Below, piece by piece: positions 15,779 to 29,265 of a DNA stretch of 63,685 nt (the first letter of the stretch is position 1; each line of letters begins with the position of its first letter). Below the pieces are notes generated by a model. The model saw only the letters and a program-made list of their open reading frames with translations. It had not been told where the DNA came from and searched no databases. The stretch is from assembly GCA_947625625.1 (NCBI GenBank), contig CANQPC010000004.1:1-63685 (forward strand), in the 5' to 3' direction. Origin of the DNA: an uncultured Bacilli bacterium. Its GTDB lineage: Bacteria; Bacillota_I; Bacilli_A; RF39; UBA660. A program made the position numbers and the translations under genes.

Positions 15779-17665
15779 TTATCTATGTTTAGCTTTTTCA
15801 GGGCTAATTTCAGGGCTAACCATACTTAATGATGTTACGTTGGAAAAATTATTGTTATTATTGTTTGTGTTAGCTAATCTTTGATTTTTGAGATCTTGAA
15901 TAAAAGTTAGCATATTTTTTCTTATATCTTTTTTTCTTTGCAAAATTAATGCCATTAAATTGTGGTAATCTTTATTAAATTCTTTACTTATTTCGGTGCA
16001 ATATCTATGAAAGATTCTTTGATAAGCTTCATCACTATATTGCTCGACTTTTTCGATATTTTGAATTAGTTTATTAAAGTTTATATCAATGTCTCCTTTA
16101 ATATATCTTTTGAATATGGTATTATAAATTGTTTCTTTTTCTCCATATTCGGAATTTGGATTACAGTTGATGTCTAAGAAATTATAATTGGAATCTAAAT
16201 GTTTTAATGCTTGTTCTTTATCAATTCCTCTAATATTTCCGTAACTATCTGTAATAAAATTATTACCATGACTATCAAAATTACACAATAAATAGTCCAC
16301 TATAAATTCATTCATAAATTGTTCTATTTCTTTTTCTTTAAATATATAGTTTTCGTCATCTTGTGCTAGATAATAGTTTATACTTTGATTAGATTCGGTA
16401 ATTTTTTCTTGTATTGATCCACACATGGTATCATTTTCAATATAGTAACATGGAACTGCTCCTCGGCTATTAAAAAGTGATTGGACTTTTGAAGCACATT
16501 CTTGAACGATACCTCGAAATTTTTCTTGTTCGTAAGTATACTTTTTTTCGGCTGGTTTATATAGAAATGTTGATCCATATAGTTTGGTTTCGTACATTCT
16601 GCCAGTTCCGCCATAATTTACTTGAACGATGTTATCACTGTTTAATTTTGGTTCATCTTCTGATAAAATATCTATTTCATCGCCATTTTGAAATCCTTTT
16701 GCTTTAGCTTTTATATCTAAATAGGTAAAGAAGTCAATCATATTAATAATACCTACATTATTTTTGGAAATATTAGTTGTAGTAGTAACTAAATCTCCAG
16801 CGTTGTCACTATATTCTCCTCCGCTACTGAAAGTGGCACGACCTTCTAAAAAAAGCGAGTTGTAATTTATAAAATTACTTAGATCTTGTTCTTTTTCTCG
16901 AGAGGCCGTAGAATTTGTAGCCTTTATACTATAATTTTCTCCTTTAGCGTTAAATAGGGTAATGATGGGCTCTTGAGAGCAGAGTTTTTCAATAATATCA
17001 TTACATGATTCTTTTAATTTTTCATCTTTTTCAAGGCCGTTATTAATTATTTTATTTGTAATTAATCTTTTATAGTAGCTTTTTTTTCCTTCTCCTACTT
17101 TATATGGTAAAAAGTTAGGAAAGTCTTGACTTAATATTCCCATAAATAGTCTTTCAGGAGCTAATTTCATACTATAATTTACTACTAGGCTTCCTGGTGT
17201 TGTAAAGAAAAGGTAATTTTGGTTATTTGATGGTGATGATTGGTGGAGATAGTAATTACTATTTCCTAGCTTTTTTTCGACGTATTCTAATTCTTCAGAT
17301 AGTTTTTTATCAAAATTTTGATTGGCTAATCCTTCTTTTTCAATGTTCTTTTTGGCATAACCATTGGAAGAATTGGCTAGAATTATGTTTTCTAAATATT
17401 TGTCATAGTTGAAGTTATTGTAGTCATAAGATGTAATTATTTTTTCTACTTCATCATAAGTGTAATTAGTTTTTTTGTCATCACTTATTATGTAATATTT
17501 AATTATTTCTGATATTTTAATTGATAATTCTTCTGAATTTGTGGAATTTTCAATTAGTTTGTAAAAAAAGTTTTTATTATTAAGAAGTCTATTTATTCTT
17601 TTAGAAATTGTTTTAGCATCCCTATAATTTTTATGAAATAAAGTATTTAAAATCATGAATATCAC
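15779..17665 (-). CDS. large hypothetical protein with C-terminal atypical (PI3/4-kinase-like) kinase signature
   Basis: FLYKPAEKK...QECAS...DYLLCNFDSHGNNF...IRGIDKEQA resembles Lys/Glu, DxHxxN catalytic loop and a metal-binding Asp. N-terminal ~330 aa unrecognised; poly-Asn tract near the C-terminus. Confidence 0.45.
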   Translation of the reverse strand: MIFMILNTLFHKNYRDAKTISKRINRLLNNKNFFYKLIENSTNSEELSIKISEIIKYYIISDDKKTNYTYDEVEKIITSYDYNNFNYDKYLENIILANSSNGYAKKNIEKEGLANQNFDKKLSEELEYVEKKLGNSNYYLHQSSPSNNQNYLFFTTPGSLVVNYSMKLAPERLFMGILSQDFPNFLPYKVGEGKKSYYKRLITNKIINNGLEKDEKLKESCNDIIEKLCSQEPIITLFNAKGENYSIKATNSTASREKEQDLSNFINYNSLFLEGRATFSSGGEYSDNAGDLVTTTTNISKNNVGIINMIDFFTYLDIKAKAKGFQNGDEIDILSEDEPKLNSDNIVQVNYGGTGRMYETKLYGSTFLYKPAEKKYTYEQEKFRGIVQECASKVQSLFNSRGAVPCYYIENDTMCGSIQEKITESNQSINYYLAQDDENYIFKEKEIEQFMNEFIVDYLLCNFDSHGNNFITDSYGNIRGIDKEQALKHLDSNYNFLDINCNPNSEYGEKETIYNTIFKRYIKGDIDINFNKLIQNIEKVEQYSDEAYQRIFHRYCTEISKEFNKDYHNLMALILQRKKDIRKNMLTFIQDLKNQRLANTNNNNNNFSNVTSLSMVSPEISPEKAKHR

Positions 17666-17782: not shown

Positions 17783-18039
17783 ATGTTTCAGGTAGGTGAT
17801 TTGGTTACAAGAAAGTCTTATGATAATGACCTCGTTTTTAAGATTATTAGAATTGATGGAGATAATTATTATTTAAAGGGACTTGTGGTTAGATTATTTG
17901 CGGATAGTCCAAAAGATGATCTTAAAATGTATACTGATGATGAGAATGATGATTTTTTACCAGAAATTGATGGATATCGGAATTTAGAACGTAATGAATA
18001 TTTTTATTTACCAGGAAGAATACTTCATATTGATGGAGA
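17783..18039 (+). CDS. yabG: yabG 5' segment (sporulation-specific protease YabG, N-terminal ~86 aa), interrupted by a mobile element
   Basis: MFQVGDLVTRKSY...RLFADS...YFYLPGRILHIDGD is colinear with B. subtilis YabG MKFQIGDMVARKSY...RLIADS...HYFHMPGKVLHLDGD. The frame then runs 7 element-encoded codons to a stop at 18064. Confidence 0.85.
18032..18039. repeat. 8-bp core GATGGAGA at the left junction (attL) of the yabG-intervening element
   Basis: Identical octamer at 28753-28760; both begin on a codon boundary of the yabG frame. Confidence 0.8.
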
Positions 18040-18487
18040 CATAACCTTAAGTAAACAAAAATAATTCGAGCATAAACCCTTATAATTAAAGGAAAAGAGT
18101 AGAAAAATGATAAATACTTATTTTAATAAAAATGATGAAAAAATTAAAAAATCAGAAAAAAATTGGAAAAATTCTTGATATTAATTTAGTGGGTGATATC
18201 TCTTAAGTAACTTAATTTTACATAGGAATTGGTTAGATAATCAATTCTTTTTTTGTGACATAAAAAATGGTGGAAAGTGATAAAATAGTTCACTTTATTA
18301 CAGCTAAATGATTAAAACAAAATTTAATATTTACGATAAAATATTTAATAGAAGAATAAATTAATAAAACTGAAAAAGTATTAGATGCATCAATTATTAT
18401 TAAATACTTTACTACTTTAGTACATAACTCATATTCTTATTAATGAAAATGTTAACATATAAATTTAAAATGACTATGTGTTTAAAA

Positions 18488-19657
18488 TTATTTTTTATCA
18501 ATAACTATTAAAGGAATTGTCATTTCATCTTTTGATAACCCAGAATGATTACCTTTTGTAGCACCATAATAAGTAGTAATATCTTTTGAATTTATAAACT
18601 GATAATTTTTTCTACATAAACTTATATATTCGCCTAAACTATCTAATAATATCGAACTATCTATATTAGGGCCAAATACTTCATTTTCAATAAAATCAGA
18701 AGTTTTAAATAATAACATTTTTCCTTCATAATCAGAATTAAACTTTCTTACAAAATCTTCTTCTTTTCCTTTTTTAATGTAATAAGTAACCATTCCAAAA
18801 TCAATTCCTGGAAGTGCATAAAAGTAATCATTGTAATCTTCAAAATTCATAACTATATCTTTAGAAACATTTGTCTGGCCATGATCGGCAGTTACTAGTA
18901 CTAAAACATCATTTTTTAATAGTTTGGTTATTTGTAATTCAATTTCTTTTATTTTATCTTTAACTATTTTACTATCATAACCATTATCATGTTCTAATTC
19001 ATCTATATCTGGTATGTATAAATATGTAAAAGTTTCTTGGTTTAATGAGCAAATATCAACGATTTTAGTAAAAGCATCATCTAAATTATTATATGGTTTT
19101 CGAATTTCTTTGTCAGCAGTATAATTAGAAAAAACACTATCATAAATACTACTAGGAAACAAAACGGTAGTATGCACATTTAAAGTATTCAATTTTGATT
19201 TAAAATTAAATATATCTTCGACTTTTATTCCAAGTTCGTTTAAAGGGGTATTAGTTTCTCTTTTGGAGAAAAGAAGCGGATAATAATTTAACTTATGTTT
19301 TCGATCATAACTGTACCAACCAATTATTCCATGTTCAGATGGGTACGTAGCGGTTGCTAAAGTTGTAAGGACACAACCTGTCGAGCTTGGACTTACGGTT
19401 AATAAATCCATAATTTTATTTTTTTTTAAAATTGAGTCTTCTAAAATGTCAATTAAATTACTACCCATTCCATCAATTAACAAAAATACAGTATGCTTTT
19501 TTTTAGGTATAATGTTTTTTAACATTTGAATATTACTATTTTCTTGTACCTTAACACTATACCTACTATATAGCATTTTAACTAAATCTACTATGTTAGG
19601 TTCGTTATAATTTGGAATAATCATTTCTTCGTTATCCATAATTTTTTTTAAATTCAT
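18488..19657 (-). CDS. alkaline-phosphatase superfamily phosphodiesterase / nucleotide pyrophosphatase (NPP-like)
   Basis: Metal/nucleophile motifs LLIDGMGSN, SPSSTGCVLTTLATATYPSEHGI, IPDIDELEHDNG, VTADHGQ. Confidence 0.7.
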   Translation of the reverse strand: MNLKKIMDNEEMIIPNYNEPNIVDLVKMLYSRYSVKVQENSNIQMLKNIIPKKKHTVFLLIDGMGSNLIDILEDSILKKNKIMDLLTVSPSSTGCVLTTLATATYPSEHGIIGWYSYDRKHKLNYYPLLFSKRETNTPLNELGIKVEDIFNFKSKLNTLNVHTTVLFPSSIYDSVFSNYTADKEIRKPYNNLDDAFTKIVDICSLNQETFTYLYIPDIDELEHDNGYDSKIVKDKIKEIELQITKLLKNDVLVLVTADHGQTNVSKDIVMNFEDYNDYFYALPGIDFGMVTYYIKKGKEEDFVRKFNSDYEGKMLLFKTSDFIENEVFGPNIDSSILLDSLGEYISLCRKNYQFINSKDITTYYGATKGNHSGLSKDEMTIPLIVIDKK

Positions 19658-19680
19658 ATTTTTTGTTCTTCCTTTAATTT

Positions 19681-21438
19681 TTAAATTTTATTAGGTACTT
19701 TTAAACTTAGTATTTCTAATAATTTTTTATTTGTATTGTAAACATTTTCACTTAGTCCCAGCCATGATTTTCTTACATTATTATCTTTTTCAGATAATAT
19801 TTTATTTGATGAATAAAAACTATTATAAATATTATTCAGTTGATATAAGTACTCCGCTATATCATTTAGTGATTTTTCTTCAAACGATTTATTTAAAACT
19901 TTATTAACTTCTAACAGTTTTAAGGAAATATCTCTATCATAATTATTGACGATAGTATTTATGGGACCTATTTCATAATTATTTTCATATGCTTTATCTA
20001 ATAAAGATTTGATTCTTATCGTAGAATACAACAAATACAAACCAGTTTTACCACTCAAATCGCAAAATCTTTCTACATCGAAAATATAATCAGTCTCTCT
20101 TTGAGGTAATAAGTCGGCATATTTTAAGGTACTAATAGCGATAGTATTAGAAATTTGTTCTCTATCGTTTCCTAATATTGAAGGATTCATTTTTTTCAAA
20201 GTTTCTTCCTTCACTATTTCTATTAATCTCAAGAGTGGCATGACGTCTCCATCTCGTGTTTTAAAGGGCTTTCCATCTTTTCCATTCATTGTTCCGAAGC
20301 CAACAAACTCTAATTTGACATTATTAGGAACAATTCCTGATTTGTATGCTGCTCTAAACACCTGTTCAAAATGTAGTGACTGTCGTTTATCAACAACATA
20401 CCATATTTCATCAGGTGATAATGTTTTCATTCTTTGCCATAATGTTGCCAAATCGGTGGTTTCATAAGAAATAGCACCGTTTGACTTAACTAATAATAAT
20501 GGCGGCATTGGCCTTGTATCATCGGGTAAAGCAACATCCATGACTAATGCTCCTTCACTTTCATAAACCAAATTCTTCTCTTTTAAGTAATCTATAACTG
20601 AAGTTACATAAGGATCTGCATCGCTCTCTCCTAACCACAAATCAAAAGAAACATTTAATTTTTCATATATTTTTTTTATGTCATCGGTTGATATTTTTAC
20701 TATTTGTTTCCATAATTCATAGTAGCCTCTTTCTTTTTGCTGAAGTTTTGCAGTTATAATTCTTGCTTCTTGAAGATAATTTTCATCCTCTTTTGCTTTA
20801 CTACTGGCTATTGGATATAATTTTTCTAAATCAACATTTTTTATTGGACATCTTTTTGGGTAATCACCTTTATAGTTTTCATCAAAATATGGCCATTCGG
20901 GATGTCTTTTTTTTAATTCTAATATAATCAACCCCATAGGCCTACCCCAATCACCAAGATGAACATCACTAATAACATTATAATTTTTAAACTTTGCTAA
21001 TCGTTTTAAAGCTTCACCGATATTTGCACTTCTCAAATGACCAACATGTAAAGATTTGGCAATATTTGGCCCTCCATAATCTATAATGATCTTTTTAATG
21101 AAAGAATTTGAATGATTTTCATCATTTTTATTTAGTATACGGTTATTTTCCATAATTTTAGCTAATTCACTATCCGAAAACGTTAAATTAATGAAACCTG
21201 GTCCTGCAACATTTATGTTTGAATAACATGATTCCTTCTTTAATAAATCTGCTATTTTGTTAGCAATTGTTATCGGATTTTCTTTATATTTTTTGCTAAG
21301 CTGCATAACTCCATTATATTGATATTGCCCAAGATCAGGTCTAACTGATACTACTAAGTTAACATTATCATCACAATATCCGCACTTTTTTATTATATTT
21401 TTTAATTCTTTTTCCTGTTCTTTTATAAAATCTATCAT
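19681..21438 (-). CDS. argS: arginyl-tRNA synthetase, second copy (E. coli-type), element-encoded
   Basis: Arg_tRNA_synt_N pattern (QYQYNGVMQLSKK...VAGPGFINL), HIGH = SLHVGHLRSANIG, PFKTRDG in place of KMSKS, and a DALR anticodon-binding C-terminus. Confidence 0.85.
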   Translation of the reverse strand: MIDFIKEQEKELKNIIKKCGYCDDNVNLVVSVRPDLGQYQYNGVMQLSKKYKENPITIANKIADLLKKESCYSNINVAGPGFINLTFSDSELAKIMENNRILNKNDENHSNSFIKKIIIDYGGPNIAKSLHVGHLRSANIGEALKRLAKFKNYNVISDVHLGDWGRPMGLIILELKKRHPEWPYFDENYKGDYPKRCPIKNVDLEKLYPIASSKAKEDENYLQEARIITAKLQQKERGYYELWKQIVKISTDDIKKIYEKLNVSFDLWLGESDADPYVTSVIDYLKEKNLVYESEGALVMDVALPDDTRPMPPLLLVKSNGAISYETTDLATLWQRMKTLSPDEIWYVVDKRQSLHFEQVFRAAYKSGIVPNNVKLEFVGFGTMNGKDGKPFKTRDGDVMPLLRLIEIVKEETLKKMNPSILGNDREQISNTIAISTLKYADLLPQRETDYIFDVERFCDLSGKTGLYLLYSTIRIKSLLDKAYENNYEIGPINTIVNNYDRDISLKLLEVNKVLNKSFEEKSLNDIAEYLYQLNNIYNSFYSSNKILSEKDNNVRKSWLGLSENVYNTNKKLLEILSLKVPNKI

Positions 21439-21460
21439 TTTAACTCCTTATAATTCTTAA

Positions 21461-23278
21461 TTAAATTTTTCTTTTTAAACATTTTACTAAAAACCCATCA
21501 TCTAATTTTTCAATAATTTTGTCATATCTACAATTTAAATTTTCGTATTCTAATCGCTTTGCAAAAAATAATAAATCATTGTTTGATAAAGCTATTAAGC
21601 ATTTCATATAATCTCTCTCACTATTTATTTTATCATGTTTTTTTAATAATTCAAATATCTGATTACAAAAATTAGGAACATATTTTCTTAATTGTAGTTC
21701 GTAATTCAGTAATTTTTCCTTGTCACCTAGTATAGATATTTTTCGATCAGTAAATATCTGAGTATAAAATACAGCATCAAATACTTCAGAAGGATTTTTT
21801 AAGTTAAATTCTATATTCTTGTTATTATTAATTATGCCGATTATATGTTCATCTGTAATAATTTCTCCAGGATAAACAAAATCTGGAATTTTGCCATAAG
21901 CATAGTGAAGTTTAAAATACCATTGAGTAAATTCTTCTATAGCTTTTGCACTAGGTTCTTTAAGACATACTAGCATATCTAAATCAGATAGAAGTTTTTC
22001 TTTTCCTTTCGCGTAAGAACCAAACACAAATGAAAAATTCAAATTATTATCAAATATTTTGGAAATTGTATTAGTGTATTCCCTAATCATAACTTTCTTA
22101 ATCTTAGTTTTCTCACTACCATCTTTAAGTTCGTCAAAATTACTATTTTCATAAAAGTTTTCTATCTCCCTATTTATTAAAATTGGTTTTCTAATTTTTA
22201 CACCTTTATACAATATATATGAAGTATTTTCTCCGTAACCACCAAACTCGCAAAATCCTGTATCTATTTCTGGAACCATTTCATTATGTAAAACAAGTGA
22301 CTCGGGAATGCTTTCTATAAAATCAGATTCCCCAAATAAAGAAATATTCATATTTTCCTGTTTATATTCTGATCTTGAAAAATATTTTTTTAAATCAGAT
22401 ATATCACTATAAATCATAACTCTAAAGATAGGAGCATAGAATTCTTCATAATTATGTGGGTCGTCCGTAATTTTTTTGACGATAACAATAGGATTCATAG
22501 TTTTATTTTTAAAGTCTATTTCACCGCCTAATACTATATGATTGCTGTCTCTAATTAAAAGTCTTGATACATCCACTAGCATGTCGCTTTTTTTGATTGT
22601 TGTTTTTTGCTTAATATTTGATTCTATTTCTTTTATTAGTTTATTTATAAACTCTGAAGACAAATTCTCTTTACATAAAATTATATTAGGTTTAGAACAA
22701 TCTTGCCCATAATTAAACATAACAGTTTCTGCTATTTTTTTACTTGCTATGTCAATATTAGCATTATCTGAAATTACTACAGGGTTTTGGCCAACTCCAA
22801 AATATATAAACATAGTATTATTAGATATAGCTTTACTTACCTGTGCAGCATTATTAGGATTTCCAACAAAAATAACGACATCTGAATAAACAACACATTT
22901 CGTCAAATATTCGTACCTAGTCCTTTCATATAGATTTATATTGTAATCATTCAAGTTTAAAATATTATGTATTTTCTTTGATTGTGAAAGTGTGTAGGTA
23001 GATGGTCTATAATATGATTTAGAAGAACAAACACTAGGAACGATAGAATATAACATTAAAGAGTACAAAGGTAAATTCATTGGCAAATAAGATGAAATCA
23101 TCTTTACTTTTTTATTTCCATATTTTCTATTATTTTCTAATGCAAGTAGAGCTAATTTATATTCTTCTAAAGCAACACTTTCATTTTCTATTTCTTTTAA
23201 AATGCTTATTATAAAATCTTTATTTTTTTCAAGATTATTTTTAATTTCTTCTAATATATAAAATTTCATAACTATCAT
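21461..23278 (-). CDS. fusion protein: aldehyde-dehydrogenase-superfamily-like domain + Pol-beta/MNT-type nucleotidyltransferase domain
   Basis: ALDH-like FNYGQDCSKPN (catalytic Cys motif), EEFYAPIF, EFGGYG. NTase motif GSYAKGKEKLLSDLDMLV. The start overlaps the upstream stop (ATGA). Confidence 0.6.
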   Translation of the reverse strand: MIVMKFYILEEIKNNLEKNKDFIISILKEIENESVALEEYKLALLALENNRKYGNKKVKMISSYLPMNLPLYSLMLYSIVPSVCSSKSYYRPSTYTLSQSKKIHNILNLNDYNINLYERTRYEYLTKCVVYSDVVIFVGNPNNAAQVSKAISNNTMFIYFGVGQNPVVISDNANIDIASKKIAETVMFNYGQDCSKPNIILCKENLSSEFINKLIKEIESNIKQKTTIKKSDMLVDVSRLLIRDSNHIVLGGEIDFKNKTMNPIVIVKKITDDPHNYEEFYAPIFRVMIYSDISDLKKYFSRSEYKQENMNISLFGESDFIESIPESLVLHNEMVPEIDTGFCEFGGYGENTSYILYKGVKIRKPILINREIENFYENSNFDELKDGSEKTKIKKVMIREYTNTISKIFDNNLNFSFVFGSYAKGKEKLLSDLDMLVCLKEPSAKAIEEFTQWYFKLHYAYGKIPDFVYPGEIITDEHIIGIINNNKNIEFNLKNPSEVFDAVFYTQIFTDRKISILGDKEKLLNYELQLRKYVPNFCNQIFELLKKHDKINSERDYMKCLIALSNNDLLFFAKRLEYENLNCRYDKIIEKLDDGFLVKCLKRKI

Positions 23279-24612
23279 CCATTAAAATCCTTAATTAGTT
23301 TTCTTGCCTTTGAGGTAAACGCTTTATCAATCCAACCTTTTCTTGGACCGAATGATAAACTATCTGTGACAATTTTAACTCTATCTTTGTTTTGCAAAAT
23401 ATAATCAACTGGAACATATTCATCATTTACAATTGCCGCTACCATAGTGTTACCTATATCATCATGTAATTTATATGCAAAATCTATTGGTGTTGATCCT
23501 TTTGACAATTCAATAATATCACCTTTTGTTGTATAAACATATATCTTATCTGAAAATAACTCGCTCTTAACTTGCGATACAAACTCTCTGTTATCTCCAA
23601 ATATTGTATTTATTTCTGTTAATGATTTAAAAAACTGATATTTGCTTTTTAACTCTTCTTGCATAACATCTCTAGCCCTTCCTTTTTCTATAACCCAATA
23701 AATTGGAAGACCAAAAGATGCTACCTTATCCATATCAAAAGTTCTGATTTGTGTTTGTACTAATTTATCATTGGGGCCAAATACTGTTGTATGAAGTGAT
23801 CTATACATATTTGTCTTAGGATTACATATATAATCTTTAAATTTATCATTTATAGGATGATACTCTTTATGTATGTAGTATAAAGTTCTATAGCAATTTT
23901 CTACCTCATCTACCATTACTTTTAAAGCAAATAAATCGTGTATATCTGATAATCTATGTCCTTCACTTAATCTCTTATATATACCATATATATTTTTCGT
24001 TCTAACTTTTATTTCATTCGGAATATTCTTAAAATTTAAAATATTTTGTATTTTATAGAGCATTTCATATAAAAAGCAATTACTATCATTTTCTATAGAT
24101 ATTTTTTTCTCTTCGATTCTTTTATATATGTCTGGCTTTAAGTATTTTAATGATAAATCTTCTAGTTCACTTTTTATTCTATATGCACCAATACAATAAG
24201 CAAGTGGAACAAATATTTCCATAGTTTCAAGTGCGTTTTCTTTCTGTTTAAATTCACTTTTAAATTGCAAAGTCCTCATATTATGTAATCTATCAGCAAG
24301 TTTTATTATAATTATTCTAACATCTTCAGTTATTCCAGTAATTATTTTTCTTGTATTTGCTAAATTTTGTTCCTGTTTGCTTGAAAAATTCATTTTTGAT
24401 AACTTTGTTACTCCATCTACTAATTTGGCTATATCTTTATTAAATTCTTCAATAATAGTTTCCTTAATTGTTTCTGTATCCTCTAATGTATCATGTAGGA
24501 GTCTTGCACATATTGTATCTCTATCGGCATGCATCTCGGCCAAAATAAATGCAACATTTAATGGATGACTTATGTAGGGCTCTCCACTTTGTCTAAATTG
24601 TCCACTGTGCAT
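23275..24612 (-). CDS. RelA/SpoT homologue, HD-SYNTH-TGS only (no C-terminal regulatory domains); synthetase likely inactive
   Basis: HD motifs SGEPYISHP, LLHDTLEDT, LADRLHNMRTL. Synthetase region YRSLHTTVFGP...VQTQIRT (Gln where the family has the catalytic Glu of ExQIRT). TGS IYVYTTKGDIIELSKGSTPIDFAY. Ends just after TGS. Confidence 0.85.
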   Translation of the reverse strand: MHSGQFRQSGEPYISHPLNVAFILAEMHADRDTICARLLHDTLEDTETIKETIIEEFNKDIAKLVDGVTKLSKMNFSSKQEQNLANTRKIITGITEDVRIIIIKLADRLHNMRTLQFKSEFKQKENALETMEIFVPLAYCIGAYRIKSELEDLSLKYLKPDIYKRIEEKKISIENDSNCFLYEMLYKIQNILNFKNIPNEIKVRTKNIYGIYKRLSEGHRLSDIHDLFALKVMVDEVENCYRTLYYIHKEYHPINDKFKDYICNPKTNMYRSLHTTVFGPNDKLVQTQIRTFDMDKVASFGLPIYWVIEKGRARDVMQEELKSKYQFFKSLTEINTIFGDNREFVSQVKSELFSDKIYVYTTKGDIIELSKGSTPIDFAYKLHDDIGNTMVAAIVNDEYVPVDYILQNKDRVKIVTDSLSFGPRKGWIDKAFTSKARKLIKDFNG

Positions 24613-24892
24613 GTTTTCCGCATAACTATAGGCTTTTTTTAATCACTTACTATTTTTGTTTTTGACAGAAGAAAAAATTATAGAAGAATAATTTAATGTA
24701 TTCTAAATTTGATTTATTTTTAAAGAAATCGTTTAATAATTCATTTTTCATAACATGTCTCCAATTGCATAATAAAAATATTGAATTAAATGTACACCTT
24801 TATTTCTAAATTGTCAATATCTTTTTTATAAAAGAAACTGCATAAGTGTGTTTATAATAGTATTTATGTTTCTTTGCCAAGAAGGAGGAAGG

Positions 24893-25237
24893 TTGAAAAA
24901 ATTAGTAAAAGGAGCTATCTTTTATGCTAGATTAGATCCTATTGTTGGTAGTGAGCAGGGTGGTGATCGTCCTGTTTTAATATTGTAAAATGATGTTGGT
25001 AATAAATATAGTACAACGACAATCGTAGCTCCAATAACAAAGGAAGAAAAAACGAAAAAAATACCAACTCATGTAAAAATAAAGTCTTTTGATAAAATAC
25101 GACCTAATTCATACGCCTTACTAGAGCAAATCCGAACTATTGATAAGTTAAGGCTAAAAGGTTTTGTTTGTAATATAGATGAAGAGGATATGAAAAAAGT
25201 AAATGATGCAATTCGTATTTCATTAGATTTAATGTAG
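24893..25237 (+). pseudogene. mazF: mazF/ndoA (PemK-family) toxin gene with an in-frame TAA nonsense codon
   Basis: The translation [48 protein letters not shown]...PTHVKI...LLEQIRTIDKLRL is colinear with B. subtilis EndoA. TAA at 24986-24988 sits where EndoA has Gln (VLVIQND). No mazE is recognisable upstream. Confidence 0.8.
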
Positions 25238-25304
25238 AAATTTTGGTATTTTTTTTTTGAATTAATATTATTGAAGTTAATAAGTTTAAAATGGGAGGGA
25301 ATGT

Positions 25305-25430
25305 ATGGAAAAAAGAAAAAATGGAGAATTGGTAATAAATATTTATGATGAAAAAGGCGTAACAATTAGTGAAAAAATATTAGAAATTTTTGAAAAATAT
25401 TTAATGTCAAGTCTGCAAAATGGCGAATGA
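25305..25430 (+). CDS. 41-aa ORF upstream of the recombinase pair (function unknown; candidate accessory factor)
   Basis: ATG 25305 preceded by gggaggga; MEKRKNGELVINIYDEKGVTISEKILEIFEKYLMSSLQNGE. Confidence 0.3.
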   Translation: MEKRKNGELVINIYDEKGVTISEKILEIFEKYLMSSLQNGE

Positions 25431-25507
25431 TACACAATTTGTACAGTGGATGGTTATTTTGATTTTTATTATGATTGGTTTGGTGATTAAAAAAGGAGGT
25501 AATGTTT

Positions 25508-27127
25508 ATGTATGATTTAAACGACCAAAGTAGGGGTAGGAGGGCTGGATCATATAGTAGGTTATCAAAAGAAGATTTAGAAAAAGTACAAAAAGGTTTA
25601 ATGGAAAGTATAAGTATTGCCAATCAGAAAAAAATAATTACTAGATATGCTGATGAACATGGTATTGAAATAGTAGAATATTATAGTGATGATGGCTTTA
25701 GTGGAGGTAATTTTGATCGACCTGATTTTAAGAGAATGATAAACGATATTGAGTGTGGAAAAATAGATTGTGTTATTACAAAGGATACTTCTCGATTAGG
25801 TAGAGAATTTATTGAAACTAGTCAGTATATATTTAAATACTTTCCTGAAAAAAATGTAAGGTACATTTCTATATTAGATAATTATGATAGTTTTAATCCA
25901 AATGGTTCAGAGGAAATGCTGCCTTTTAAGAATGTAATTAATGATATGTATTTAAGACAAGCATCAATAAAATCTAAAAGTACAAGGCATGACTTGATGA
26001 AAGAAGGTTATTTTGTAGGTAGTAGTGTTCCTTATGGATATAAAAGGTCAGCAGAAGATAGTCGTAAGTTTGTTATTGATAAATATGCTGCTAATATTGT
26101 AAAAAGAATATTTGAGATGAAATGTAATGGAGTTACGGATGGAATGATTGCTCGTACTTTAACTAATGAAGGAATCCTTCCTCCAAATGTATATAAAAAT
26201 CGAAAAATGAATAAAGTGACAGTTACGACTAATTTGTGGAAGAACGCTTCAATAAAAACGATAATATGTAATCCTGTATATATTGGAACATTGATACAAT
26301 GCAAATATGAAAGAGTTAGTTTAAAATCTAAAAAGAAGAGATTATTACCTAAAGATAAGTGGATAGTTAAAACTAATGTTCATGAACCTATTATTGATAA
26401 AGAGACTTTTGAAAAAGCCAATAATATAAAGAAAAAAGAAATGTCTGTTGATACTCGATGCAGAAAGTATGATTATTTACTGAAAGGTTTAGTAATATGT
26501 GAAGAGTGCCAAAGACCACTGTTAGTTAGGAGGTGTAAAACAAAGAGTAAAAATGGTGAGGAAGATGTTTATCCAATATATTGTTGTAGAACTTATGCTA
26601 CTTACCGAAATAATATATGTAGTATGCATTATTATAGAGAGGATGCTTTAAATGAACTAGTATTAAACGAATTAAGACAACTTTTATTACAATTTTCTGA
26701 GGAAAAAAAGTTAGATGATAAATATAAAATAGTGTTAGCTAATTCTAATTTGATAGAAAAATACGAAAGAGAATATTCTGTTAATACTAAAAAATTAGAA
26801 AATATCGATAAAGCAATAAGTGAATTATATAAAGATAAAGTATCAAATATAATAACTATGGATGAATTTACTTCAATTAAAAACAATTTAGAAAAAGAGA
26901 AAATAAACATTGAAAAGAATATATCTGATTTAAAAATAATGATTGAAAATTCAAAACCTTCTGTGATGGATGAGACAAAAAGAAAGAAAGTTATTAATAA
27001 TTTTTTACAAATGAAAAATCCAACAAAGCAAATGATGCAAGATTTGATAAACAAAATTACGATAGATAAAAATAAAAATGTAAAAATTTATTATAATTTT
27101 AATATTAAGGAAGGTATGTATGAATAG
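25508..27127 (+). CDS. large serine recombinase A of the yabG-intervening element
   Basis: AGSYSRLSKEDL catalytic Ser region, TKDTSRLGRE, recombinase domain (VPYGYKR), Cys-rich zinc ribbon (CEECQRP...CCRTY...C), coiled-coil C-terminus. ATG 25508 (9 nt after AGGAGG) preferred to 25502. Confidence 0.9.
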   Translation: MYDLNDQSRGRRAGSYSRLSKEDLEKVQKGLMESISIANQKKIITRYADEHGIEIVEYYSDDGFSGGNFDRPDFKRMINDIECGKIDCVITKDTSRLGREFIETSQYIFKYFPEKNVRYISILDNYDSFNPNGSEEMLPFKNVINDMYLRQASIKSKSTRHDLMKEGYFVGSSVPYGYKRSAEDSRKFVIDKYAANIVKRIFEMKCNGVTDGMIARTLTNEGILPPNVYKNRKMNKVTVTTNLWKNASIKTIICNPVYIGTLIQCKYERVSLKSKKKRLLPKDKWIVKTNVHEPIIDKETFEKANNIKKKEMSVDTRCRKYDYLLKGLVICEECQRPLLVRRCKTKSKNGEEDVYPIYCCRTYATYRNNICSMHYYREDALNELVLNELRQLLLQFSEEKKLDDKYKIVLANSNLIEKYEREYSVNTKKLENIDKAISELYKDKVSNIITMDEFTSIKNNLEKEKINIEKNISDLKIMIENSKPSVMDETKRKKVINNFLQMKNPTKQMMQDLINKITIDKNKNVKIYYNFNIKEGMYE

Positions 27128-28691
27128 TAAAATGGTTGTAGGATATGACAGACTTTCAAAAGAAGACTTGGAAAAAGAAAATGATTATTCTAAAAGTATA
27201 AATAATCAGATGCTGATGATAAGAAAATTCGCTCAAAAAATTGGTCTTAAAATTGTCAAAGAATATATAGATGATGGATATTCGGGAATTAATTTTGATC
27301 GACCTAGTTTTGAGGAGTTAATTCAAGATATTATAGATGGTAAAATTTCTACTATTATAACTAAAGATATGTCGAGACTCGGTAGAGAAATGATTGAAAC
27401 AATTTACTATATAACGGAATTTTTCCCAGCTTATGATGTAAGATACATTGCTATTAATGATAGTTACGATAGTGCTGATTTAGATAGAGACCAAAAACAT
27501 TTTAATATAGTTATGCAGTCAGTCTTAAATGATAGATATGTTAAAGATGTTTCGGATAAAAGAAAAAAAACAGCACAATTAAAGACATCACAAGGTGAGT
27601 TTATAGGATGTAAAAGTCCTTATGGATATAAAATTGTAAAAAAAGATGGTAAAAGAACATTGGAAATTGATGAATATGCTGCTAATATTGTAAAGAGAAT
27701 ATTTGTTTCTATTGCAAGTGGTATGTCAAGGAAAGAAGTTGCCGAAGAATTAAATCGTGGTAAGATTGTGCCTCCAATGTTATATATGAAAATGACACCA
27801 AGTAAGAAAAAAAATTATTATAATGATTGGAGCGATTCAATAATTTATAGGATACTTAGAAATAAGACATACACGGGAAGGCTAGTGAAAAGAAAAAGTA
27901 CCAAAAATAATTATAAAGATAAGAAAAGAAATTATATTGCAATAAGAGATAGAGAAACAACTGATATTATGCATCCAATAATTATTTCTGATAAGTTATT
28001 TAATGAAGCAAATGAAAGAATTAAAACGCTAAAAAGAAAAGAAAAAAATGGCTATACTGATTCTTACAATGGAGCATTTAGTGGATTAGTAATATGTGGT
28101 GAATGTGGTAGAGTTATGACAGCTTGTAGATTTACTAAAAATGGAAAAGTTAGATATCGTTTTGAGTGTACTTCAGTTAAAAATAGAGTACATTGTCCGA
28201 ATAGATCAATATATGATACGAAGTTACAAAGTATAGTTGGTGATGCAATAAAAGATTTAATTAATAATTATGCAAATGGTGAAAAAATTGTCAATAAAGT
28301 GGCAAAAGACTGGATGCAGAAAAAAAGATTTAATACAAAAATAGCTAATTTAAAAAATAGCATCGAATTACATGATACGAATATTAGAAATTTATATATA
28401 AAAAAAACACACGAAGAAATATCATTGGAAGAATTTTTAGAGAAAAAAAAGATAGAAAGTGAAATAAGAGAGCAAGAAGAGAATGAATTAAAAAGACTAA
28501 TAACTGAAAATGATATTGAAATAGAAAAAAATGATATTCTCGATAAATATAATAAATTTATCAATAATGAAATATTATTAAAAGATTATATACGGGACTT
28601 TATCAAAGAAATTGTTATATATAAAGATAACACTATACAACTATCTTTTAAATTTGGCTTAGGTGAACCTAAAAAAATAAAGTTATATTAG
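27120..28691 (+). CDS. large serine recombinase B of the yabG-intervening element
   Basis: VVGYDRLSKEDL, TKDMSRLGRE, SPYGYK, CGECGRVMTAC...CTS...CPN zinc ribbon. Overlaps recombinase A by 8 nt; stop is 62 nt from the right core. Confidence 0.9.
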   Translation: MNSKMVVGYDRLSKEDLEKENDYSKSINNQMLMIRKFAQKIGLKIVKEYIDDGYSGINFDRPSFEELIQDIIDGKISTIITKDMSRLGREMIETIYYITEFFPAYDVRYIAINDSYDSADLDRDQKHFNIVMQSVLNDRYVKDVSDKRKKTAQLKTSQGEFIGCKSPYGYKIVKKDGKRTLEIDEYAANIVKRIFVSIASGMSRKEVAEELNRGKIVPPMLYMKMTPSKKKNYYNDWSDSIIYRILRNKTYTGRLVKRKSTKNNYKDKKRNYIAIRDRETTDIMHPIIISDKLFNEANERIKTLKRKEKNGYTDSYNGAFSGLVICGECGRVMTACRFTKNGKVRYRFECTSVKNRVHCPNRSIYDTKLQSIVGDAIKDLINNYANGEKIVNKVAKDWMQKKRFNTKIANLKNSIELHDTNIRNLYIKKTHEEISLEEFLEKKKIESEIREQEENELKRLITENDIEIEKNDILDKYNKFINNEILLKDYIRDFIKEIVIYKDNTIQLSFKFGLGEPKKIKLY

Positions 28692-28752
28692 GGTAGATTA
28701 ACAGGCTTAATCTTTATTTTATACCTTTATCTTTTATTTGCAAAAATCTGTG

Positions 28753-28760
28753 GATGGAGA
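28753..28760. repeat. 8-bp core GATGGAGA at the right junction (attR) of the yabG-intervening element
   Basis: Identical to 18032-18039 and in the same codon phase. Confidence 0.8.
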
Positions 28761-29265
28761 TAATGATTATTTAGAAAAATGTATGAAATTTTATAAAAAA
28801 AATAGGCTTAAAGCTTTTGGAGTTTTCTCTAAAGAAAGTGATTTGGTAGATAGTGTAAAAATTAATTTAGAAAAGTATAATCCAGATATTTTAGTGATAA
28901 CGGGGCATGATGCATATTATAGAAAGAAAAGAAAAGATGATAATTATAAAAATACTGGTAATTTTGTCGAAGCAGTAAAAACTGCGAGAAGGTATGAAGG
29001 TTCGCATGAAAAATTAATTATTATAGCGGGAGCTTGTCAGTCTAATTATGAAGAGTTAATTAAAGCTGGGGCTAATTTTGCTTCGAGTCCTAAGAGAATA
29101 AATATTCATGCTTTGGATCCTGCTATTGTGGCATCTTGTCTTGCTTTTTCTGATAAAAATAATAATATTGACCTTATGAAAATTTTAGATAAAACTAAAT
29201 ATGGGTCTGACGGAATAGGGGGGATTATAACTAAGGGAACTATGTATATTGGTTATCCTAGATAA
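28753..29265 (+). CDS. yabG: yabG 3' segment (C-terminal ~170 aa of sporulation protease YabG)
   Basis: DGDNDYLEKCMKFYKK...YNPDILVITGHDAYY...LIIIAGACQSNYEELIKAGANFASSPKRINIHALDP matches B. subtilis YabG ...DGDEAYLKKCLNVYKK...YRPDILVITGHDAY...FAGACQSHFESLIRAGANFASSPSRVNIHALDP. Confidence 0.88.
   Translation, partial: DGDNDYLEKCMKFYKKNRLKAFGVFSKESDLVDSVKINLEKYNPDILVITGHDAYYRKKRKDDNYKNTGNFVEAVKTARRYEGSHEKLIIIAGACQSNYEELIKAGANFASSPKRINIHALDPAIVASCLAFSDKNNNIDLMKILDKTKYGSDGIGGIITKGTMYIGYPR

Follow-up and report, generated by a model that had tools for sequence, protein, structure and literature searches.

To our knowledge, a single route is established in which an aminoacyl-tRNA is reduced, by way of a cysteine thioester, to an alpha-amino aldehyde: the C5 pathway, formed by GluRS, HemA and GSA aminomutase. 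Aminoacyl-tRNA synthetase (aaRS) genes are also found in biosynthetic clusters, where the synthetase acts as a substrate supplier or provides self-immunity; arginyl-tRNA synthetase (ArgRS) is among them (preprint 10.64898/2025.12.02.691738). Here we describe a cassette of four genes on a stretch of DNA from an uncultured Bacilli bacterium (contig CANQPC010000004.1 of assembly GCA_947625625.1). We call the whole stretch that was analysed, 63,685 nucleotides in length, the window. The cassette encodes a RelA/SpoT homologue (RSH), a fusion of an aldehyde dehydrogenase (ALDH)-like domain with a nucleotidyltransferase (NTase), an ArgRS and an NPP-family enzyme, and it lies on an element that interrupts the sporulation gene yabG.

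Such elements provide a second point of reference. In C. botulinum V73 the prophage yin occupies yabG, its recombinase gene adjoining the 5' half, and its authors reported no other yabG element (PMC10747680). As for the cassette itself, we found no account of it, or of fusions between aaRS and ALDH-like domains, in a literature search whose coverage was incomplete; this is absence of evidence only.

Comparison of gene order and sequence across metagenomes indicates that the four genes form a conserved operon that moves horizontally and has the fusion and ArgRS as its core. What might such an operon do? We tentatively propose that the ALDH-like domain represents an unrecognised, widespread class of aaRS-coupled reductases of arginine and lysine, which would act on the aminoacyl-tRNA or the aminoacyl-adenylate and are not homologous to glutamyl-tRNA reductase (GluTR). 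The cassette would then be a self-contained mobile pathway to a nucleotidylated aldehyde or alcohol derived from arginine, such as a mimic of arginyl-adenylate, in which a dedicated tRNA-charging enzyme and an alarmone hydrolase insulate translation and the stringent response.

Results

The four open reading frames (ORFs) all lie on the minus strand. That of RSH (23275-24612, 445 aa) is followed by those of the fusion (21461-23278, 605 aa), ArgRS (19681-21438, 585 aa) and the NPP-like protein (18488-19657, 389 aa). The stop codon of RSH and the start codon of the fusion share four nucleotides (ATGA, 23275-23278), and the remaining intergenic gaps are 22 and 23 nt. The initial annotation of this DNA had described this packing and quoted motifs from the proteins; the ORF coordinates agree with it and each motif is found in the translations. 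Its 5' end for the operon, at 24645, has to be moved: the intact RSH ORF begins with the ATG at 24612, and 24643-24645 is an in-frame TGA. Domains of the window proteins were called with Pfam and NCBIfam profiles. Gene order, its conservation, domain content, the state of active-site motifs and the fusions of ALDH-like domains to aaRS, all set out below, are direct observations.

The initial annotation had allowed that the four genes might stand together by chance in this one genome. They recur in the same order, RSH-fusion-ArgRS-(SDR)-NPP, in at least five contexts besides the window, in gut metagenomes; a short-chain dehydrogenase/reductase (SDR) gene is often added. The genes that flank these cassettes are unrelated: tyrS, rlmH, rpsD and ezrA in one context (L001-6, L019), PadR and gatCAB beside spoIIP in another (L007-10), ddl (L018, L023-25) or a Ham1 gene (L021-22) in others, and L016 as a further case. 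Since the same gene order recurs amid unrelated flanks, the arrangement is more than chance, and these comparisons leave us with hardly a doubt that the cassette is a real conserved unit. Its proteins resemble those of the window to different degrees, with identities of 79-80% for RSH, 68-73% for ArgRS, 56-63% for the fusion and 50-63% for NPP.

Not every copy is complete. Full-length homologues of the fusion are 46-63% identical to it, and in three further lineages (L027-32; fusion 46-49% identical) the fusion is followed by ArgRS in the absence of RSH or NPP; the ArgRS of these lineages is 64-76% identical to that of the cassette. Of 12 distinct contexts, nine have ArgRS next to the fusion, seven NPP and six RSH. 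It is this ranking that identifies the fusion and ArgRS as the apparent core, and the four- or five-gene version as a composite that travels as one block. Fusions with a degenerate NTase are orphaned in L015 and L037, and the contexts of three distant matches (P0059, P0061, P0062) are uninformative or the copies orphaned and split.

All of the relatives come from metagenomes. Among 185,579 species representatives, just 5 carry the fusion: these are uncultured gut Bacilli or metagenome-assembled genomes labelled Mollicutes, and one bears the label Muribaculaceae, so the taxonomic breadth of the fusion is poorly sampled. Phage and plasmid collections held no full-length homologue of the fusion; the phage matches were ALDH fragments in Staphylococcus contigs. 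By PHROGs, ArgRS-like and HD proteins do occur in phage collections, with no match at the level of the system.

Several genes neighbour the cassette more than once. Fragments of the TyrRS C-terminal domain directly follow it in L001 (15600-15812) and L021 (8210-8464), and a full tyrS lies upstream in L001; fragment and full gene together suggest that the cassette was inserted at the 3' end of tyrS. Radical-SAM genes recur beside the module (L020 2006-3061, L031 11759-12790, L018/L023 8210-9100). One family of 343-351 aa, 72% identical between L020 and L031, comes after the fusion or ArgRS, and a different one of 296 aa after NPP. A Ham1/ITPase-like gene adjoins the module in two arrangements (L029 11702-12262; L021/L022 235-790), 52% identical between the lineages.

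The initial annotation had called the 605-aa protein a fusion of an ALDH-like domain with a Pol-beta/MNT NTase, and both halves were recovered. Pfam places Aldedh at residues 133-306 (3e-13; PF00171, 49.6 bits against a cut-off of 23) and Polbeta (8.9e-07) and NTP_transf_2 (2.7e-06) at residues 403-479. In an AF2 model of pLDDT 90, the N-terminal 375 residues (22154..23278, minus strand) superpose by Foldseek on class-3 ALDHs and GAPN as top matches, with E = 1e-19 to ALDHs. The C-terminal 230 or so residues (aa 376-605; 21461..22153, minus strand) form a minimal Pol-beta NTase with a GS...SDLD motif and a C-terminal helical domain. A sequence profile of this half finds weak matches in the PDB to 2rff, AadA (6sxj), MntA (5yep) and kanamycin NTase, at E values of 0.008 to 0.1.

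What sets the ALDH-like domain apart is its active site. The general-base glutamate of ALDHs primes a water molecule for hydrolysis of the thioester; members that carry out acyl transfer or reduction, such as LuxC, ProA and the CoA-acylating ALDHs, typically lack it. Across 47 sequences of the family, Cys194 (GQDC), Asn68 (PMNLP) and Glu279 (EFYAP) are invariant, and the position of the general-base glutamate (ELGGK motif) is an invariant glycine, Gly161, within GVGQNP in the window and NGAGHNP in relatives. Such a pattern, with glycine at the general-base position and the cysteine and asparagine kept, is what would be expected of acyl-transfer or reductase members. LuxC (PF05893) matches the window fusion at 18.3 bits, under its cut-off of 21, and relatives likewise weakly. 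No curated NCBIfam model reached its cut-off on the ALDH-like domain, and no GlutR family is among the Pfam and NCBIfam matches of the window proteins. A ProA-like or ArgC-like role in arginine synthesis was considered and set aside, similarity to these enzymes being no higher than to generic ALDHs.

We searched 1.84 billion representatives (clusters at 50% identity) with a profile built from the fusion and obtained 2461 matches, 319 of them at E<1e-30. Standing alone, the compact ALDH-like domain has about 390 aa. Its commonest partner is an NTase, found in 16 of 50 mid-length relatives and in either order. Other members of the family are fused to aaRS domains. A class I LysRS precedes the ALDH-like domain in P0380, P0384 and P0435 and follows it in P0390, P0438 and P0444, and a class II LysRS-like domain is fused to it in P0445 and P0436. 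The ALDH-like domains of these proteins show every family motif found in the window protein, the glycine at the general-base position among them. JGI gives two family members the odd name 'lysyl-tRNA synthetase class 1', which the LysRS fusions in the family explain. Independent fusions to two non-homologous classes of LysRS, taken together with the operonic pairing with ArgRS, amount to Rosetta-stone evidence that the domain would take its substrate from an aaRS specific for a basic amino acid.

The family has further partners: aminotransferase, GNAT, P-loop kinase-like, SDR/epimerase and ankyrin domains. Among P0333, P0332, P0360 and P0382 we saw ankyrin repeats, a class I/II aminotransferase (with an NTase), GNAT and P-loop kinase-like domains; the ankyrin fusion hints at intracellular bacteria. 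A stand-alone homologue, 30% identical, opens an NRPS cluster on plasmid pBMB171 of B. thuringiensis (L026, 168927-184928), where it is followed by the gene of a TPP-binding protein and that of a class I adenylate-forming enzyme. The same cluster further holds a KS-like protein, a cyclic-peptide ABC exporter and an NRPS.

The initial annotation's complete ArgRS of the E. coli type stands. TIGR00456 matches at 362.5 bits (cut-off 261.65), and PF03485, PF00750 and PF05746 are all present, so that the N-terminal, catalytic and DALR domains are complete; alignment to 6ao8 shows the class I HIGH signature as HVGH. The best solved relatives are the proteobacterial-type enzymes of Neisseria (6ao8, 1.1e-89) and E. 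coli (4oby, 1e-84). Identity to Listeria and Enterococcus ArgRS found in contigs of the phage collection is 27-28%.

The assignment of the last protein to the NPP family likewise held. Pfam Phosphodiest (PF01663) matches at 1.8e-20 (74.3 bits, cut-off 23). In a Foldseek search with the AF2 model (pLDDT 95), the nearest structures were ENPP6, ENPP5, ENPP3 and ENPP1 and the NPP of Xanthomonas (Xac), at TM scores of 0.61-0.65; PhnA (1ei6) came at rank 27, and a PDB sequence search with the protein gave no PhnA match at E<=1. Residues D62, T93, D219, H223, D258, H259 and H371, which we take to be the metal ligands and the threonine nucleophile of an NPP, are invariant in 34 homologues. Sequence and model thus identify the product of 18488-19657 as a predicted cytoplasmic NPP-family phosphodiesterase/pyrophosphatase of the alkaline-phosphatase superfamily.

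The RSH had been described as a hydrolase-type enzyme with HD, SYNTH and TGS domains only, and on both points we agree. Pfam finds HD_4 (6.6e-38), RelA_SpoT (5.8e-29) and TGS (1.2e-19), after which the protein stops: the C-terminal regulatory region (helical, ZFD and RRM/ACT domains) is absent, and the chain ends at residue 445, or 480 in relatives. TIGR00691 covers model positions 8-447 of 687 and scores 488.9 bits, under its cut-off of 499.2. Aligned with B. subtilis Rel (6yxa), the protein retains the hydrolase motifs HD, ED and DRLHNMRT. The synthetase motifs are altered: EVQIRT has become QTQIRT, replacing the catalytic glutamate, and MHEIAEYGVAAHWAYK has become MDKVASFGLPIYWVIEK (in the AExGxAAHWxYK motif, AEYGVAAHWAYK replaced by ASFGLPIYWVIEK). 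The homologue in L001 carries identical changes. By its motifs, this RSH is most likely a hydrolase-only enzyme with a pseudo-synthetase domain.

The window copy of RSH is shorter than its homologues, which have 480 aa and start about 35 residues earlier (N-terminus of the L001 homologue: MNNSITLQDLLNKLREYNPEEVEIVKRAYEYA). The corresponding stretch of the window (24613..24751, minus strand) begins with an ATG at 24751 and is broken by TAG and TAA stops, by a frameshift at an A7 run (GTGATTAAAAAAAGCC, at about 24633-24639) and by the TGA at 24643-24645. Since the first 35 or so residues of the homologues fall in this interrupted stretch, the window RSH appears to be truncated at its N-terminus or decaying. 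The disruption at the A7 run could be true decay, a homopolymer sequencing error or slippage. The window copy of the cassette also lacks the SDR gene and the leader that are present in relatives.

This leader is a conserved stretch of about 220 nt 5' of the 480-aa RSH (L001 8200-8552; equivalents in L007, L018, L023 and L035). Its parts are a promoter-like site, a small ORF (sORF) of 48-49 aa in which the core S(A/V)RNKYYTN is conserved, and a hairpin (AACGGTG.CC ... GGCACCGTT) that resembles a terminator and precedes a T-run. The leader is kept where RSH stands alone. A permissive Rfam scan of the L001 leader gave no match, which argues against a T-box. We considered the 48-aa sORF as a precursor peptide and rejected the idea; the sORF is conserved with stand-alone RSH and a terminator hairpin follows it, so that a regulatory leader is more likely. 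In the window, a promoter-like site (TTGACA-17-TACATT, 24789..24817, minus strand) lies 5' of the RSH remnant. It is a consensus match only: its position fits the start of the operon, but the region showed no enrichment of promoter motifs over shuffles. The window has a G+C content of about 27%, and an Rfam scan of it found only a tRNA-Gly.

The cassette is the cargo of an element of about 10.7 kb (18032..28760) whose context the initial annotation had read correctly. Of yabG, which the element splits, the 5' part spans 17774-~18039 and the 3' part ~28753-29265; each junction carries the 8-nt core GATGGAGA (18032-18039; 28753-28760). Joining the halves, the first ending at about 18039 and the second resuming at about 28761, restores YabG (...LHIDGD|NDYLEKC...). 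Two large serine recombinase genes, in tandem and overlapping (25502-27127 and 27120-28691), adjoin the 3' half. Because yabG is split, it may reasonably be supposed that the element is discarded in the mother cell during sporulation. Between cassette and recombinases, on the plus strand, lies a MazF/PemK-like gene (24893-25234; PemK_toxin 3.4e-31), interrupted in frame by a TAA (24986-24988) and with no antitoxin gene recognised upstream; it has probably become a pseudogene. Just outside the element, a 628-aa ORF on the minus strand (15779-17665) matched nothing in Pfam, NCBIfam, PADLOC or PHROG.

A second intervening element, with the fusion, NPP and one large serine recombinase as its only cargo, occupies a gene for a SpoVD-like penicillin-binding protein (PBP) in L017 (6235-13950). 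The split leaves PBP_dimer and the start of the transpeptidase domain on one side, and the rest of the transpeptidase domain and PASTA on the other.

Discussion

How could these parts work together? We infer that the ALDH-like domain runs in the reductive direction on an arginyl substrate with tRNA as its carrier. ArgRS would first activate arginine, and Arg-tRNA(Arg) is the most plausible activated form. Both ArgRS and class I LysRS require tRNA even for amino-acid activation (restated in PMC2034488) and the cassette ArgRS keeps all its tRNA-binding domains, which makes tRNA the likely carrier. The invariant Cys194 of the ALDH-like domain would then attack the activated ester to give an arginyl-thioester, and NAD(P)H would reduce this to the alpha-amino aldehyde argininal. 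The logic would be that of LuxE/LuxC, or of GluRS and glutamyl-tRNA reductase, in a different enzyme family. That a cassette of this kind contains an aaRS-coupled reductase strikes us as an evenly balanced proposition.

What follows is speculative, both in the parts played by NTase, NPP and RSH and in the product that results. In five-gene variants the SDR might reduce the aldehyde further; the SDR in most cassettes and the NTase and kinase-like partners across the family do suggest tailoring of an amino aldehyde or alcohol. The ANT/MNT-like NTase might place a nucleoside monophosphate (NMP) on the hydroxyl of the product, an aminoalkyl adenylate that mimics arginyl-AMP being one conceivable outcome, purely by inference. 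The NPP-type enzyme could cleave the resulting phosphodiester for turnover, maturation or self-protection, a role that fits because NPP can cleave a 5'-nucleotidyl phosphodiester such as the NTase would make. The dedicated ArgRS would recharge the tRNA-Arg deacylated by the pathway and might also serve as a resistant target copy. Finally, the hydrolase-only RSH would hold (p)ppGpp low, so that extra uncharged tRNA-Arg triggers no false stringent response. Because a pathway that strips arginine would raise uncharged tRNA-Arg, ArgRS and a TGS-bearing hydrolase would form a coherent offset. We regard the whole scheme, an argininal pathway with these roles for NTase, NPP and RSH, as doubtful in its entirety.

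Several observations weigh against it. The dedicated ArgRS is not obligatory, since the L017 element has the fusion and NPP but neither ArgRS nor RSH. The catalytic motif of the NTase is gone in two orphan copies (P0056, P0057), and P0332, in which an aminotransferase, the ALDH-like domain and an NTase are joined, offers no obvious hydroxyl that could be nucleotidylated. Neither an exporter nor a regulator accompanies the cassette consistently. In the window itself the RSH is broken at its N-terminus and a MazF pseudogene lies nearby, so this copy may be decaying. Lastly, an RSH of 480 aa and 86% identity stands alone in other genomes (L033-36) behind the same 48-aa sORF leader. The existence of these stand-alone copies makes the putative coupling of RSH to the cassette the weakest step of the scheme.

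The same copies bring forward a different account of RSH. In this account the functional unit is only the fusion with ArgRS, or the fusion with NPP, and RSH is a co-transcribed passenger that was captured together with its promoter and leader. As a partial rival to the scheme, such a composite of convenience seems to us somewhat unlikely. In its favour, RSH occurs alone with its leader, the fusion-ArgRS pair does without RSH in L027-32, and in the window RSH is already broken. It accounts less well for the spacing between RSH and the fusion, which is kept at 5-22 nt or an overlap in six genomic contexts. Nor would a passenger be expected to hold at 79-80% identity while the fusion drifts to 56-63%; from these figures, RSH would be under purifying selection within the cassette.

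The ArgRS, too, can be read in another way. The initial annotation had suggested a self-resistance ArgRS linked to the synthesis of a metabolite derived from arginine and a nucleotide. The link to a metabolite is the suggestion closest to the evidence, with the fusion beside ArgRS in 9 of 12 contexts and the ALDH-like/LysRS fusions. A rival reading makes the cassette a resistance or tolerance determinant against a compound that targets ArgRS, be it an analogue of arginine or a mimic of arginyl-adenylate, for example. In this reading the ArgRS, being of a foreign type, would provide an insensitive target copy, the NTase and NPP would modify or cleave the drug, and RSH would lift the stringent arrest that uncharged tRNA-Arg brings about. 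The low identity (27-28%) of the ArgRS to typical Firmicute enzymes would suit this role, and aaRS copies, ArgRS among them, are well established as immunity determinants; the NTase with its helical domain weakly resembles antibiotic nucleotidyltransferases, and the cassette is borne on mobile elements. However, the ALDH-like reductase has no obvious part to play in resistance, L017 has no ArgRS, and fusion of the ALDH-like domain to the catalytic domain of LysRS points to catalysis on the aaRS product rather than to inactivation of a drug. We consider resistance unlikely as the function of the cassette.

Less probable still is a conflict module, whether anti-phage or of the toxin-antitoxin or addiction type, that works on the 3' end of tRNA: the NTase would modify it, NPP or the HD domain would undo this, and ArgRS would recharge the tRNA. 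TGS domains bind tRNA CCA ends, and a small recombinase-borne element with a MazF remnant adjoining is a congenial setting for such a module. The NTase domain matches the PADLOC candidate families PDC-S09 and PDC-M05A, and an AbiEi_4-like protein lies directly upstream of the fusion in L027. PADLOC 2.0, however, goes no further than domain-level matches (these two for the NTase and a weak PDC-S33 for RSH) and has none for ArgRS or NPP. The initial annotation's analogy to toxSAS and CapRel systems fails on the degenerate RSH synthetase. MntA (NF047752) reaches 25 bits where 60 are required, and a HEPN domain was not seen anywhere in the operon. In L027-32 housekeeping genes surround the fusion-ArgRS pair, and the recurrent SDR, radical-SAM and aminotransferase partners look metabolic. 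Phosphonate catabolism by a PhnY-like ALDH and a PhnA-like hydrolase that have picked up extra genes, also raised in the initial annotation, can be dismissed as very improbable: an ALDH and an alkaline-phosphatase-superfamily enzyme are indeed the minimal content of L017, but PhnAcAld_DH scores 18.2 bits against a cut-off of 635.65, the general-base glutamate needed for hydrolytic aldehyde oxidation is absent, the NPP model lies closest to ENPPs, with PhnA far down the structural ranking and missing from the PDB sequence matches, and no PhnW gene or phosphonate transporter lies nearby.

Should the aaRS-coupled reductase prove real, aminoacyl-tRNA reduction would not be unique to haem biosynthesis: it would recur across a large uncharacterised family, with 319 clusters and links to both classes of LysRS. 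Gut Firmicutes would have a new route to alpha-amino aldehydes, which serve as warheads of protease inhibitors, or to aminoacyl-adenylate mimics, which inhibit aaRS. An orphan hydrolase-only RSH would gain a function, and small elements that interrupt sporulation genes would be seen to spread metabolic cargo.

Comparison with known systems

The element itself has clear counterparts. Like skin, SPbeta (in spsM), vfbin and yin, it interrupts a sporulation gene of the mother cell and brings large serine recombinase genes with it, and with yin it shares the very target, yabG. It differs from yin in its size of 10.7 kb, in having no phage genes, and in its two tandem recombinases, which stand beside the 3' half of yabG.

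Individual cassette proteins also have relatives in described systems. The RSH has the HD motifs typical of Rel and the TGS domain of the long RSH enzymes (Rel/SpoT; 1.1e-115 to B. subtilis Rel), but its synthetase residues are replaced and everything C-terminal of TGS is gone. In being hydrolase-only it resembles the small alarmone hydrolases, yet it keeps the pseudo-SYNTH domain and TGS and so is not one of them. The NTase shares with the MNT and ANT enzymes (MntA, AadA, kanamycin NTase) the minimal Pol-beta fold, the GS...DxD motif and the helical domain that follows; it differs in that the matches are weak, in its place behind an ALDH-like domain and in having no HEPN partner.

For the cassette as a whole, aaRS genes in biosynthetic clusters come closest as precedents, among them the ArgRS of tiarin clusters. 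In the indolmycin, valanimycin (VlmL) and tiarin/trifolitoxin (ArgRS) clusters, as here, an extra aaRS lies beside small-molecule enzymes as a supplier or a resistant copy. Those clusters have no ALDH-like/NTase fusion, NPP or RSH, whereas the window cassette has no precursor peptide or exporter.

For the presumed chemistry, two systems invite comparison. In the C5 pathway the next enzyme is of the PLP aminotransferase class, which parallels the aminotransferase fusions of the ALDH-like family. GluTR, however, is unrelated in fold, and the pathway serves glutamate alone, is non-mobile and has no NTase, NPP or RSH partners; the resemblance is functional only. In LuxC/LuxE, an adenylate-forming enzyme passes an activated acyl group to the cysteine of an ALDH-superfamily reductase, and NADPH reduces it to the aldehyde. 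The ALDH-like domain of the window and many of its relatives match LuxC weakly, and all lack the hydrolytic general-base glutamate. Here the activator would be a full aaRS instead of an acyl-protein synthetase and would presumably act on a basic amino acid, and NTase, NPP and RSH partners, absent from lux operons, are present. Set beside these systems, the ALDH-like family could prove to be a new enzyme class; otherwise it could be an activated-acyl reductase coupled to an adenylate-forming enzyme, or part of a tRNA-dependent small-molecule pathway.

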